NCBI GenBank assembly: GCA_951406725.2 | Contig: OX597814.1 | Span: forward strand, 27,652,001-27,716,000 | Origin: Octopus vulgaris | Lineage: Eukaryota | Reading direction: 5' to 3' | DNA length: 64,000 nucleotides | Part shown: in pieces, positions 5,625 through 45,530 of the stretch | Position numbering within the stretch: the stretch's first letter is position 1 | Layout of the letters: the number at the start of each line of letters is the position of its first letter | The notes under the pieces: generated by a model | Told to the model about the DNA's origin: nothing | Seen by the model: the letters and a program-made list of their open reading frames with translations, nothing else | The model's database searches: none | Translations under genes and position numbers: made by a program

Positions 5625-6277
5625 ATTCTTTTCTACTTTAGGCACAAGGCCCGAAATTTTGGGGGAGGGGGCTAGTCGATAAGATCGATCTCAGTACGCA
5701 ACTGGTACTTAATTTATCGACCTCGAAAAGATGATAAGCAAAGTCGACCTCGGCAGAATTTGAACTCAGAACATAAAGACAGACGAAATACCGCTAAGCA
5801 TTTCACCTGGCATACTAATGTTTCTTATTTCTTTATTGCCCACAAGGGGCTAGACATAGCGGAGACAAACAAGGACAGACAAAGGAATTAAGTCAATTAC
5901 ATCTGATCCCAGTACACAACTGGTACTTAATTTATCGACCCCGAAAGGATGAAAGGCAAAGTCGACCTCGGCGGAATTTGAACTCAGAATATAAAGACAG
6001 ACGAAATACCGCTAAGCATTTCACCTGGTATACTAATGTTTCTTATTTCTTTATTGCCCACAAGGGGCTAGACATAGCGGAGACAAACAAGGACAGACAA
6101 AGGAATTAAGTCAATTACATCTGATCCCAGTACACAACTGGTACTTAATTTATCGACCCCGAAAGGATGAAAGGCAAAGTCGACCTCGGCGGAATTTGAA
6201 CTCAGAACGTAACGCCAGACGAAATACCGGTAAGCATTTCGCCCGCTGTGCTAACGTTTCCACCAGCTCGCTGCCTT
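5625..6277 (-). mobile_element. Tandem array of SINE family B (Meta-domain-like), three units, period about 218 bp
   Basis: Repeated atttctttattgcc at 5827 and 6045; head ccagctcgctgcctt at 6263-6277; central gtcgactttgcctttcatcctttcggggtcgataaattaagtaccag resembles the MetaSINE/Sauria SINE core. Confidence 0.85.
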
Positions 6278-10459: not shown

Positions 10460-11200
10460 TTAAAGGTAATTAAGTAGTTACAGAAAGAGATATGATGAAA
10501 AACATAGTCGTTGCTGGAAGGGTTCGGAGAGTGATAGAAGAAATAAATAATTTTAGAGGAGTGAAGAAGCGATTTTGAAAAGAGTAACTAGAAGTCTTTG
10601 TAGCTGATGCTTAGCTTACATAGGCGAATGGTGGCTCTGTATTTCGGAGTTGAGTAAAGATTGTAGCCAGTGTAGCAGAGCCAAACTACAGATAAGGGCC
10701 GAAAGATTTGTAGCTTAGAGAAGAATAGGATGTGCATCTGCGAAAGAAGTGACGGGGGTAGATATAGGTGGAGTACAATCTTTAGATGTGAGAAGAGGGA
10801 AGGTTATTCAGTGGGTTAAGTTTTAGCTTCTGGATTGAGCGCCGTGAGGTCAAGATGATATCCTAGGTAGATATAGGTGGAGTACAATCTTTAGATGTGA
10901 GAAGAGGGAAGATTATTCAGTGGGTTAAGTTTTAGCTTCTGGATTGAGCGCCGTGAGGTCAAGATGATATCCTAGGTAGATATAGGTGGAGTACAATCTT
11001 TAGATGTGAGAAGAGGGAAGGTTATTCAGTGGGTTAAGTTTTAGCTTCTGGATTGAGCGCCGTGAGGTCAAGATGATATCCTAGGTAGATATAGGTGGAG
11101 TACAATCTTTAGATGAGAAGAGGGAAGGTTATTCAGTGGGTTAAGTTTTAGCTTCTGTCTTGAGCGCCGTGAGGTCAAGATGATATCCTAAAGGGAGCCT
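10460..11200 (-). mobile_element. Highly decayed LINE RT C-terminal fragment (I/Jockey-like)
   Basis: Minus-strand peptides LGYHLDL and SYKSF..FGSA reminiscent of the LGV.LD and Y.S.IRP.LEYG motifs; weak. Confidence 0.35.
10757..11190. repeat. 109-bp minisatellite, 4 near-identical copies
   Basis: ggtagatataggtggag at 10757, 10866, 10975 and 11084. Confidence 0.95.
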
Positions 11201-19968: not shown

Positions 19969-20380
19969 CCCTTTAGTGTTTAAACCGGCTATATCAGGCC
20001 AAAATTATCTTCCTGTTTTATGCTCAAAGCAGCCAGCTCTGACCTCTCACACCTACCCTACAAAGTCATTCTAAAAATAAACATAGACATCATCAAAATC
20101 TCAGAGTTACAAGATGCTGTACAATTAATTTAAAACAATGTAATTAAACAAGCTTTACATTTGACAGAGTAATCTGAATGCTATATCAGGCCAAAATTAT
20201 CTTCCTGTTTTATGCTCAAAGCAGCCAGCTCTGACCTCTCACACCTACCCTACAAAGTCATTCTAAAAATAAAGAGAGACATCATCAAAATCTCAGAGTT
20301 ACAAGATGCTGTACAATTAATTTAAAACAATGTAATTAAACAAGCTTTACATTTGACAGGGTAATCTGAATGCTAAAGGG
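19969..20380. mobile_element. piggyBac-type MITE with internal 192-bp tandem duplication
   Basis: TTAA|ccctttag..ctaaaggg|TTAA; gctatatcaggcc at 19988 and 20180. Confidence 0.85.
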
Positions 20381-20441: not shown

Positions 20442-22053
20442 CAGGAGTTCTCGAACATTTTTAATCTGTGGCCCCCTTTGATTACTATTTTATTCTGGTG
20501 GACCCCCTCCCCAATAGCCATTCGATGTTCAAAAACTAGTTTTATAGAAACGTCTTTCAAAATTCCTATTTTGTTCTTCACGTTTGCTTTTGTAGGTTTA
20601 ACTATGCAAAATGATGGAGTAAGAAACCTAGCCGTTTCTTGCGATACATATCAATACATACATAAGGCGGCGGGCTGGCAGAAACGTTAGCACGCCGGGC
20701 GAAAAGCTTAGCGGTATTTCGTCTGCCGTTAGGTTCTGAGTTCAAATTCCGCCGAGGTCGACTTTGCCTTTCATCCTTTCGGGGTCGATAAATTAAGTAC
20801 CTATTTCTTTATTACTCACAGGGGGCTAAACACAGAGGGAACAAACAAGGACAGACATAGGTATTAAGTCGTTTACATCGACCCCAGTGCGTAACTGGTA
20901 CTTAATTTATCGACCCCGAAAGGATGAAAGGCAAAGTCGACCTCGGCGGAATTTGAACTCAGAACGTAGCGTCAGACGAAATACCGCTAAGCATTTCGTC
21001 CGGCGCGCTAACGTTTCTGCCAGCTCGTCGCCTTATAAATTAAGTACCAGTTACACACTGGGGTCGATATAATCGACTTAACCCGTTTGTCTGTCCTTGT
21101 TTGTCCTCTCTGTGTTTAGCCCCTTGTGGGTAGTAAAGAAATAGGTATTTTGTCTGCCGTTAGGTTCTGAGTTCAAATTCCGCCGAGGTCGACTTTGCCT
21201 TTCATCCTTTCGGGGTCGATAAATTAAGTACCAGTTACACACTGGGGTCGATATAATCGACTTAATCCGTTTGTCTGTACTTGTTTGTCCCCTATATGTT
21301 TAGCCCCATTGTGGGTAGTAAAGAAATAGGTATTTTGTCTGCCGTTAGGTTCTGAGTTTAAATTCCGCCGAGGTCGACTTTGCCTTTCATCCTTTCGGGG
21401 TTGATAAATTAAGTACCAGTTACACACTGGGGTCGATATAATCGACTTAACCCGTTTGTCTATCCTTGTTTGTCCTCTCTGTGTTTAGCCCCTTGTGGGT
21501 AGTAAAGAAATAAGTATTTCGTCTGCCGCTGCATTCTGAGTTCAAATTCCACCGAGATCGACTTTGCCTTTCATCCTTTCGGGGGTCGATTAAATAAGTA
21601 CCAGTTATGCACTGAGGTCGATAGAATCGACTTAATCTGTTTGCCTGTCCTTGTTTATCCCCTCTGTGTGTAGCCCCTTGTAGGCAATAAAGAAATAAGA
21701 AACGTTAGCACGCCGAGCGGAATGCTTAGCGGTATTTCGTCTATCTCTACGTTCTGAGTTCAAATTCCACTGAGGTCGACTTTGTATGTTATCCTTTCGG
21801 GGTTGATAAATTAAGTACCAGCTGTGTACTGGATCGATCTAATCGACTGGCCCCCTCCCCCAAAATTTCGGGCCTTGTGCCTAGAGCAGAAAAGAATACA
21901 TACCAATACATACATCTAAAGTAAATGTTTTTCAGGGGTCCTCAATTTACTGTTTTGAAGCATGGATCCCCAATTTACTATTTTGTAGCATGGATCCCCC
22001 AAAATTTTATATGGACCCTCAGGGGCCATATGGACTCCAGTTGAGAACCACTC
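20442..22053. mobile_element. hAT (Charlie-like) MITE split by a SINE array
   Basis: Degenerate TIRs caggagttctcgaac / gttgagaaccactc; 8-bp TSD-like atctaaac / atctaata. Confidence 0.65.
20665..21895 (+). mobile_element. SINE family B tandem composite containing an inverted B copy (20802-21034)
   Basis: Outer 20-bp TSD atacata(t/c)caatacatacat at 20644-20663 and 21896-21915; inner 14-bp TSD ataaattaagtacc at 20788-20801 and 21035-21048. Confidence 0.9.
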
Positions 22054-24070: not shown

Positions 24071-25037
24071 ATTTCTTTATCGGCCATAAGGGACTAAACA
24101 TAGAGGGACAAACAAAGACAGACAAAGGGATTAAGTCGATTACATCGACCCCAGTGCGTAACTGGTACTTATTTAATCGACCCCCGAAAGGATGAAAGGT
24201 AAAGTCGACCTCGGCGGAATTTGAACTCAGAACGTAGCGGCAGACGAAATACCTGTTTCTTTACTACCCACAAGGGGCTAAACACAGAGAGGACAAACAA
24301 GGACAGACAAACGGATTAAGTCGATTATATCGACCCCAGTGCGTAACTGGTACTTATTTAATCGACCCCGAAAGAATGAAAGGTAAAGTCGACCTCGGCG
24401 GAATTTGAACTCAGAACGTAGCGGCAGACGAAATACCTGTTTCTTTACTACCCACAAGGGGCTAAACACAGAGAGGACAAACAAGGACAGACAAACGGAT
24501 TAAGTCGATTATATCGACCCCAGTGTGTAACTGGTACTTATTTAATCGACCCCGAAAGGATGAAAGGTAAAGTCGACCTCGGCGGAATTTGAACTCAGAA
24601 CGTAGCGGCAGACGAAATACCTATTTCTTTACTACCCACAAGGGGCTAAACACAGATAGGACAAACAAGGACAGACAAACGGATTAAGTCGATTATATCG
24701 ACCCCAGTGCGTAACTGGTACTTATTTAATCGACCCCGAAAGGATGAAAGGTAAAGTCGACCTCGGCGGAATTTGAACTCAGAACGTAGCGGCAGACGAA
24801 ATACCTATTTCTTTACTACCCACAAGGGGCTAAACACAGATAGGACAAACAAGGACAGACAAACGGATTAAGTCGATTATATCGACCCCAGTGCGTAACT
24901 GGTACTTATTTAATCGACCCCGAAAGGATGAAAGGTAAAGTCGACCTCGGCGGAATTTGAACTCAGAACCTAACGGCAGACGAAATACGGCTACAGATTT
25001 CGCCCGGCGTGCTAACGTATCTGCTAGCTCGCCGCCC
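24071..25037 (-). mobile_element. SINE family B array, five 184-bp units plus one head
   Basis: Unit starts at 24071, 24255, 24439, 24623 and 24807; head gctagctcgccgccc ends at 25037. Confidence 0.92.
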
Positions 25038-43119: not shown

Positions 43120-45293
43120 AGAATTATTATTGCTTTCGAACAGATTTTCGAAATCAGCAAATGTACTTTGCTTGAAAATCTATATATGAATATCCTGCAG
43201 AGTGAGAATTCGTCGAGGAAGCGGAAGCCTACCACACGCCGACGATAGGCAATACACCTTGAAACCATGGTCCGTGTGTGGTTTCCGCTTCATCGGGGAA
43301 TTACCTCCCTTTGCCGGTTAAGGGCACCGTGACGGTGTCGAGCCTTTCTGGTGACGTCGATGTTCGCCTGGGGCTGAATGCAACAGTAACACCCCCACCA
43401 CCCTGCCCTGTCCCTAGCCATATTCAGATGGCTTTAGTCCCTTATGTTATCGAGCAGTTACTGTCTATATCTCTTTTAGAGAATTATTATTGCTTTCGAA
43501 CAGATTTTCGAAATCAGCAAATGTATTTTGCTTGAAAATCTATATATGAATATCCTGCAGAGTGAGAATTCGTCGAGGAAGCGGAAGCCTACCACACGCC
43601 GACGATAGGCAATACACCTTGAAACCATGGTCCGTGTGTGGTTTCCGCTTCATCGGGGAATTACCTCCCTTTGCAGGTTAAGGGCACCGTGACGGTGTCG
43701 AGCCTTTCTGGTGACGTCGATGTTCGCCTGGGGCTGAATGCAACAGTAACACCCCACCACCCTGCCCTGTCCCTAGCCATATTCAGATGGCTTTAGTCCC
43801 TTATGTTATCGAGCAGTTACTGTCTATATCTCTTTTAGAGAATTATTATTGCTTTCGAACAGATTTTCGAAATCAGCAAATGTATTTTGCTTGAAAATCT
43901 ATATATGAATATCCTGCAGAGTGAGAATTCGTCGAGGAAGCGGAAGCCTACCACACGCCGACGATAGGCAATACACCTTGAAACCATGGTCCGTGTGTGG
44001 TTTCCGCTTCATCGGGGAATTACCTCCCTTTGCAGGTTAAGGGCACCGTGACGGTGTCGAGCCTTTCTGGTGACGTCGATGTTCGCCTGGGGCTGAATGC
44101 AACAGTAACACCCCCACCACCCTGCCCTGTCCCTAGCCATATTCAGATGGCTTTAGTCCCTTATGTTATCGAGCAGTTACTGTCTATATCTCTTTTAGAG
44201 AATTATTATTGCTTTCGAACAGATTTTCGAAATCAGCAAATGTATTTTGCTTGAAAATCTATATATGAATATCCTGCAGAGTGAGAATTCGTCGAGGAAG
44301 CGGAAGCCTACCACACGCCGACGATAGGCAATACACCTTGAAACCATGGTCCGTGTGTGGTTTCCGCTTCATCGGGGAATTACCTCCCTTTGCAGGTTAA
44401 GGGCACCGTGACGGTGTCGAGCCTTTCTGGTGACGTCGATGTTCGCCTGGGGCTGAATGCAACAGTAACACCCCCACCACCCTGCCCTGTCCCTAGCCAT
44501 ATTCAGATGGCTTTAGTCCCTTATGTTATCGAGCAGTTACTGTCTATATCTCTTTTAGAGAATTATTATTGCTTTCGAACAGATTTTCGAAATCAGCAAA
44601 TGTATTTTGCTTGAAAATCTATATATGAATATCCTGCAGAGTGAGAATTCGTCGAGGAAGCGGAAGCCTACCACACGCCGACGATAGGCAATACACCTTG
44701 AAACCATGGTCCGTGTGTGGTTTCCGCTTCATCGGGGAATTACCTCCCTTTGCAGGTTAAGGGCACCGTGACGGTGTCGAGCCTTTCTGGTGACGTCGAT
44801 GTTCGCCTGGGGCTGAATGCAACAGTAACACCCCCACCACCCTGCCCTGTCCCTAGCCATATTCAGATGGCTTTAGTCCCTTATGTTATCGAGCAGTTAC
44901 TGTCTATATCTCTTTTAGAGAATTATTATTGCTTTCGAACAGATTTTCGAAATCAGCAAATGTATTTTGCTTGAAAATCTATATATGAATATCCTGCAGA
45001 GTGAGAATTCGTCGAGGAAGCGGAAGCCTACCACACGCCGACGATAGGCAATACACCTTGAAACCATGGTCCGTGTGTGGTTTCCGCTTCATCGGGGAAT
45101 TACCTCCCTTTGCAGGTTAAGGGCACCGTGACGGTGTCGAGCCTTTCTGGTGACGTCGATGTTCGCCTGGGGCTGAATGCAACAGTAACACCCCCACCAC
45201 CCTGCCCTGTCCCTAGCCATATTCAGATGGCTTTAGTCCCTTATGTTATCGAGCAGTTACTGTCTATATCTCTTTTAGAGAATTATTATTGCT
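43120..45293. repeat. Six head-to-tail 360-bp units plus 15-bp terminal redundancy; origin unknown
   Basis: agaattattattgct at 43120, 43480, 43839, 44199, 44559, 44919 and 45279; only three differences seen (43166, 43315, 1-bp deletion near 43752). Confidence 0.97.
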
Positions 45294-45530
45294 ATATATA
45301 TATAGGAATATATATATATAGGATATCACCCTATAGCTTCATCGGAGCTTTGAATATGAAGTGCAATTTTATTTAGGAATGCATTTCCAGAAATTCTTAT
45401 TCCTTTGTATTTTTAATTTCTTATTACTGCTCTGCACTCGACTGGCGATTTGTTCTGAAGCGTGTATATATTGAGTGGTACACCAGGTTATCAGTATCGC
45501 TATGCCTAAATGAAATAATAATAATAATAC

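Follow-up and report, generated by a model that had tools for sequence, protein, structure and literature searches.

The tandem array at positions 43120 to 45293 of the window, as we call the whole 64,000-nucleotide stretch of Octopus vulgaris DNA that was analyzed, is one of at least 749 recent insertions of a noncoding 360-base repeat. As judged from its sequence, it is very probably an insertion of an animal non-LTR retrozyme, and we think it likely that the enzyme of a Neptune-type Penelope-like element (PLE) inserted this young hammerhead retrozyme at TA microsatellites, probably by copying one 360-base circle from two fixed starts. The first-pass annotation of this DNA had considered the capture of a small DNA circle on the one hand and a retrozyme or small mobile RNA on the other; the second idea has gained from the dispersed arrays, from the type I hammerhead motif in each unit and from the single haplotype per array.

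The array and its dispersed family

The insertion and its surroundings comprise the following features (positions of the window).

42882 to 43029, no strand: left (TA)n target tract, long
43027 to 43119, minus strand: inverted arm, made of unit 331-267 (43027-43091) and, directly after it, unit 150-122 (43091-43119)
43120 to 45293, plus strand: sense arm, six units and 15 bases, terminating at the fixed end at unit position 15
43120, 43480, 43839, 44199, 44559 and 44919, plus strand: unit starts (lengths 360, 359, 360, 360, 360 and 360 bp)
43191 to 43320, plus strand: long imperfect hairpin that encloses the hammerhead as an extended stem I, fold z -6.12; arms end most often on its 3' side
43273 to 43632, plus strand: predicted cut-to-cut RNA monomer of 360 nt, a candidate circular RNA placed from the predicted cuts
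45250 to 45293, plus strand: 44-base "tail" bounded by the two fixed ends (unit 332-360, then 1-15), on one arm only
45293 to 45323, no strand: right (TA)n tract, short and interrupted

For the array as assembled, the unit coordinates bear out the earlier description of six near-identical units of about 360 nt with a 15-bp overrun and exactly three differences: unit 1 has two substitutions, and unit 2 lacks one base. All six units carry a G at unit position 257 that was found in only 2 of 100 sampled loci. The longest open reading frame (ORF) within the array encodes 85 amino acids, and the monomer that follows the one listed above has a fold z of -5.19. The GC content is indeed higher than in the 2-kb flanks (46.9% versus 40.1% and 35.4%). 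The array had also been called CpG rich, which is true of the count (18 per unit versus 10.3 and 8.6 per 360 bp in the flanks), but given observed/expected ratios of 0.91 for the array and 0.88 for the whole window, there is no enrichment beyond GC content. As the first-pass annotation had stated, no unit-like sequence is present in the other repeat families of the 64-kb window. The window also holds four copies of a 109-bp unit that are 98% alike (10757-11190) and short tandem runs of 184- to 218-bp units (5687-6240, 19988-20375, 21035-21697, and 24084-24988), three of which resemble what we take to be a cephalopod SINE-like repeat.

The reported insertion into (TA)n is correct insofar as tracts lie on both sides, but the right one is short and interrupted, and the insert starts near 43027-43030 and not at 43120, since the bases at 43027-43119 exactly match unit pieces in reverse complement. 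This 93-bp inverted arm, which adjoins the left (TA)n tract and begins at the family's fixed end at unit position 331, had been overlooked, as had the hammerhead motif that the unit holds along with a long hairpin. Splicing of unit 151-267, which has GT..AG ends, was considered as the source of the inverted piece and rejected: the 267/150 junction within the arm occurs a single time in the genome and hence represents a one-off jump, not a recurring splice form. Two internal jumps, one in another locus (L068) and the one at window position 43091, land at unit 150-151, two to three bases 5' of the predicted cut, as would be expected if copying had moved onto a cleaved RNA at its end.

Genome-wide searches covered the 2.8-Gb host assembly. 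The 360-base unit gave 785 first-look candidates, of which the 40 that were scored yielded 176 matches, the best being 96 to 100% identical. The hammerhead pattern had 1,461 matches, and unit position 15 abutting (TA)n in an exact junction had 749, while the reversed control of either search gave 0. Dispersed, differently permuted arrays had been named beforehand as the mark of a mobile circle. The arrays are indeed dispersed; their outer ends are fixed at two unit positions and not randomly permuted, which counts against a captured DNA circle. Three samples were drawn for comparison: the 40 loci nearest to the window unit, the window included; 35 additional loci taken from the initial 100 matches to the hammerhead pattern; and the first 100 junctions out of 749, a sample that is unbiased for arm length and selected for an intact 15 end. 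Two further families, seen in loci L100-L111 and L132-L161, share their tail end with the young family. Sister family B, at 356 bp and about 85% identity, has the core UUGAUAA and gave 109 matches to one diagnostic pattern; the older family C, with 2,621 candidates, has the canonical core, and its copies are about 90% alike. Searches of the main texts of a largely open-access literature listed no earlier report of the 360-base family; PMC8557442 was the only paper listed for octopus hammerhead tandem repeats.

The hammerhead motif

Every unit contains a hammerhead, here a predicted self-cutting RNA motif, which is laid out as follows in unit 1.

43233 to 43278, plus strand: predicted type I hammerhead; the motif recurs in each of the six units
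43233-43238 with 43273-43278, plus strand: stem I
43239-43245, plus strand: core CCGACGA
43246-43260, plus strand: stem II, with U.U at its base
43261-43264, plus strand: GAAA
up to 43272, plus strand: palindromic stem III, then GUC; predicted cut after C 43272, that is, after unit position 153
after 43632, 43991, 44351, 44711, and 45071, plus strand: predicted cuts of the remaining units

An Rfam scan returned chance matches only and no hammerhead family, because the core is a variant (CCGACGA). The tally of cores in young copies is CCGAUGA (109), CCGACGA (38), UUGAUAA (16), UUGACGA (14), UUGAUGA (5), and other (2). The core is UUGAUAA in sister family B and, with compensatory changes, the canonical CUGAUGA in older family C. 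A pattern search found 0 canonical cores in young copies; given that a rough estimate predicts about one such copy, this zero is no evidence of selection. To the pairing itself the covariation analysis speaks, for which 12 sequences were chosen out of 30 variants. In this set, 94.6% of the cells are paired, and both sides change at 4 of 14 pairs: the 3-8 core pair (C3-G8 to U3-A8), one pair in stem II, and two in the stem III palindrome. The covariation score was reached by 0 of 500 shuffles, and slid controls scored far lower, but the sequences represent three related families. The lowest-energy fold is a rod in which the core is paired in, rather than the active junction, making ribozyme activity uncertain.

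According to PMC3088659, U3-A8 and U4C are natural hammerhead variants, U4C being less active in vitro. Both are likewise found in the sister families here; such variants are rare in that account, whereas in the present family, a successful mobile one with a canonical older relative, they are the norm. At L074:191-240, in an inverted repeat beside a PLE, there is a further hammerhead-like motif; its core is CCGACGA, and its stem I has 8 pairs.

Insertion scars and the probable Penelope-like partner

The typical scar reads (TA)n, antisense arm from unit position 331, sense arm to unit position 15, (TA)n. Among the 100 insertions sampled by their 15 end, 82 have an inverted arm, which starts at unit 319-331 in 78 of the 82 and exactly at 331 in 66. 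Two of the four inverted arms that start elsewhere do so because the fetched sequence ended too early, and two of the 18 loci without an inverted arm in the sample proved to be two-armed on longer sequence. The second arm starts about 44 bases from the first end, and this 44-base stretch is terminal on one arm only. Target duplications of 11 to 13 bases were seen at 5 of 6 hand-picked nonmicrosatellite sites.

The lengths of the two arms are correlated (rho 0.57, n = 78). Tail arms exceed one unit in 45 of the 100 insertions, with inner ends at fractional unit positions, and the numbers surviving turns 1 to 5 (45, 12, 8, 6, and 5 of 100 arms) follow a heavy-tailed rather than a geometric distribution, with no clear pile-up at exactly one turn in the 100-insertion sample. 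The array maximum is 24 hammerhead copies, and one insertion consists of 16 + 8 copies in which all changes are private to single units. Arm stops are concentrated on the 3' flank of the long hairpin (unit 154-210). The inner ends lie at most 30 bases apart in 29 of 78 loci (permutation mean 17.3; P = 0.002), and within a range of 45 bases, chosen post hoc, the tail arm ends behind the other arm 23 times and ahead of it 9 times (P = 0.02). This proximity and this bias fit the notion that both target ends copy one endless template. Fold-back self-priming was rejected as the general source of the inverted arm, since many inverted arms hold sequence that is missing from the other arm. "Twin priming" had no occurrence in the papers that the literature search covered.

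A candidate enzyme was sought by a genome search for GIY-YIG domains, which gave 6,136 candidates; 150 were scored, the matches numbered 148, and 50 loci (30 + 20) were compared with the unit. Two PLE families were found whose ORFs combine a reverse transcriptase (RT) with a C-terminal GIY-YIG domain and have the Cx4CxxC linker, a mark of Neptune/Nematis according to PMC8557442. Both of these Neptune-type families lie in (TA)n with one arm inverted, and their tails measure about 40 or 32 bases. Neptune-type loci targeting (TA)n, from at least two families, are L112:1745-4087, L130, and L113:2582-4303, and one family retains an open 781-amino-acid frame in many copies (L112/L130). The L113 family has a type I hammerhead (CCGAAGA, U.U at the stem II base, palindromic stem III) whose oddities match those of the retrozyme without sequence similarity. 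A match to the unit in L113 was discarded as an autonomous partner, since it is a separate, older retrozyme relative. None of the 50 GIY-YIG loci holds an autonomous PLE (pLTR) with sequence similarity to the unit, and two patterns built from diverged contig ends had no match in the genome.

A direct PLE/retrozyme junction was seen in a single one of the loci compared (L256, G000:C2:86148697-86152697), and it is ambiguous. The left end of this locus holds 270 bp of the pLTR of the 781-amino-acid Neptune family, 98% identical, with its own tail-less end at (TA)n; an inverted retrozyme piece follows without a TA spacer, and then the sense arm. One explanation is that the template was switched in the course of a single insertion, and this would identify the partner; the other is a nested insertion combined with a deletion. 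PLE copies also lie near retrozyme arrays in L162, L168, and L169.

Given the inverted truncated arm and the one-sided tail between two fixed ends in 78 of 82 cases, and autonomous PLEs with the same target and scar in the same genome, it is highly probable that a PLE enzyme inserts the family. Tandem and inverted insertions with a 30- to 40-bp tail are described for PLEs (PMC8557442, PMC3846280), and the PLE protein of Anolis Poseidon nicks and extends both strands, the tail being bounded by two internal RNA start sites (PMC11167929).

Template, proposed mechanism, and known relatives

How variants are shared bears on whether the template was a circle. Differences between units in the 35-locus sample amount to 0.48% within arms, 0.32% between arms, and 3.7% between loci, the last value being taken for loci under 8% apart. 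Variant sharing was scored in 74 loci (L196 was left out as rearranged), 61 of which have three or more passes. Counted per locus, family variants are present in all passes 108 times, in some 9 times, and in one 40 times, and private variants in one pass 78 times, in some 6 times, and in all 2 times. The arms are identical at every polymorphic site in 49 of the 72 two-armed loci, versus 4.6% when shuffled, and 15 locus-private alleles in these loci occur in both arms and 78 in one arm only. The 56 full-unit loci hold 37 haplotypes, and most loci are uniform in haplotype. Of the 190 arrivals at the predicted cut site, only 3 (1/111 and 2/79) stop within three bases of it, showing that cut monomers are not the template.

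Arm sharing, long arrays, and read-through of the cut site fit rolling-circle reverse transcription of one circle; matching arms would also be expected of two RNAs of one donor locus. On balance, we lean toward a circular template. The rolling-circle product proposed at first sight thus survives as the reading that we favor on indirect grounds, but not as the capture of a DNA circle. In a set of four sequencing runs, contigs of two that we guessed to be RNA close as 360-base loops, as tandem DNA would also make them do. Some long arrays (L039; L274 with L249) are mosaics in which several family haplotypes are mixed unit by unit, which may stem from template switching, a mixed donor, or gene conversion.

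With the same element and the same PLE enzyme, the template could instead have been a linear multimer, transcribed from a tandem donor and left uncut, with the weakened hammerhead sparing long transcripts. We regard this as rather unlikely but worth weighing. It would suit the noncanonical core of every young copy and the occurrence of donor-sized long arrays and of mosaics, and in vitro the main substrate is unprocessed RNA, with hammerhead cleavage dispensable (PMC11167929). However, the 37 haplotypes in 56 loci, mostly uniform within a locus, would require many homogeneous long donors, the arms overlap in sequence yet have private alleles in common, and arrays cannot grow by the copying of linear donors. 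A second alternative is that short PLE-type insertions grew later in place, by slippage or unequal crossover, in which case array length would be uninformative about the template. Local amplification is what a vertebrate survey, with cleavage in one of nine elements, preferred for tandems (bioRxiv 10.64898/2026.07.22.740005), and the heavy-tailed arm lengths and the six private variants common to some units of an array agree with it. We consider it improbable, since private variants are so much more often confined to one unit (78 versus 6), long arms come in pairs, the longest arrays are star-like, and the 45 arms beyond one unit already have fractional ends. Finally, the captured rolling-circle product of an extrachromosomal DNA microcircle (eccDNA), or an assembly artifact, is barely credible in spite of the 360-bp size and near-identical units: where eccDNA predicts a single linear donor and random circular permutation, the genome search gave hundreds of independent insertions whose outer ends keep to two unit positions, together with inverted arms and a ribozyme motif that is conserved and covaries, a pattern that refutes a DNA microcircle as the origin of the family and the idea of a one-off capture, and the unit is present in one piece on a contig of a separate public run.

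For the circular template, the following course of events can be proposed. A tandem locus would be transcribed, the hammerheads would cut after unit position 153, and the monomer would be ligated into a circle, by analogy with other retrozymes. The PLE protein would nick both strands of a (TA)n or AT-rich target, and the DNA ends would prime reverse transcription at unit positions of about 15 and 331, where the observed ends lie, as PMC11167929 leads one to expect. Both enzymes would then travel 3' to 5' on what is presumably the same template, through the cut site, where read-through is observed, for part of a turn up to about 16 turns, the range of the arm lengths. The two cDNAs would be joined back to back, often at hairpins, in keeping with the geometry of the scars. 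More speculatively, the two RTs of a Neptune PLE dimer, primed by the nicked strands, might chase each other 44 bases apart around one 360-nt circle and so write both arms, with weakened cores (U4C; U3 variants) that arose independently keeping the circle closed for copying. The hints for such a chase are the behind-bias (23 versus 9; P = 0.02), the private alleles in both arms, and the L256 junction. The copying of retrozyme circles into tandem arrays by PLEs was proposed in PMC7229834, and co-occurrence and phylogeny support PLE copying of retrozymes (bioRxiv 10.64898/2026.07.22.740005); the insertion step itself is not demonstrated in the parts of these two sources drawn on here. The youth of the octopus family preserves the scars with their two fixed starts; the template is short and defined, the target is known, and the same genome holds intact candidate enzymes, and the in vitro PLE assay of PMC11167929 makes the choice between circle and linear RNA directly testable. 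The variant cores also mean that searches for canonical hammerheads can miss entire retrozyme families.

Compared with PLEs, the family resembles them in the head-to-head inverted, 5'-truncated arm, the one-sided tail (44 bases here), the type I hammerhead, the microsatellite or AT-rich targets, and the 11- to 13-base duplications. It differs in being ORF-less, the whole element being a permuted 360-base unit repeated up to 24 times.

The assignment to the retrozymes agrees with tandem noncoding repeats in the range of about 150 to 450 bp (360-bp units, ORFs of at most 85 amino acids), a type I hammerhead in 6/6 units with covariation and a variant core, and dispersed multicopy occurrence without LTR structure. 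Calling the element undescribed and viroid-like was therefore an overstatement, because animal non-LTR retrozymes have already been described (PMC7229834). Their units are of similar size (coral; mussel, 350 to 390 bp; axolotl, 330/350 bp), they are noncoding with a GC content under 50% and one type I hammerhead per unit (PMC7229834), and they are dispersed as monomers to multimers, with PLEs co-occurring (PMC7229834; bioRxiv 10.64898/2026.07.22.740005). The axolotl Amex2 ribozyme has, as here, a two-pair helix III with a tetraloop and U.U at the helix II base; with its weak helices, it performs best as a dimer (PMC7229834). Unlike in described animal retrozymes, no sequence-related pLTR donor was found here in the 50 loci compared, and the cores of the young families are never canonical (CCGAYGA, UUGAUAA, UUGAYGA). 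(TA)n targeting, inverted arms, and two fixed ends are absent from the retrozyme descriptions in those parts of PMC7229834 and the bioRxiv study that we used. On sequence grounds, then, the family is an addition to the animal non-LTR retrozymes, with a variant core and unusually clean scars.
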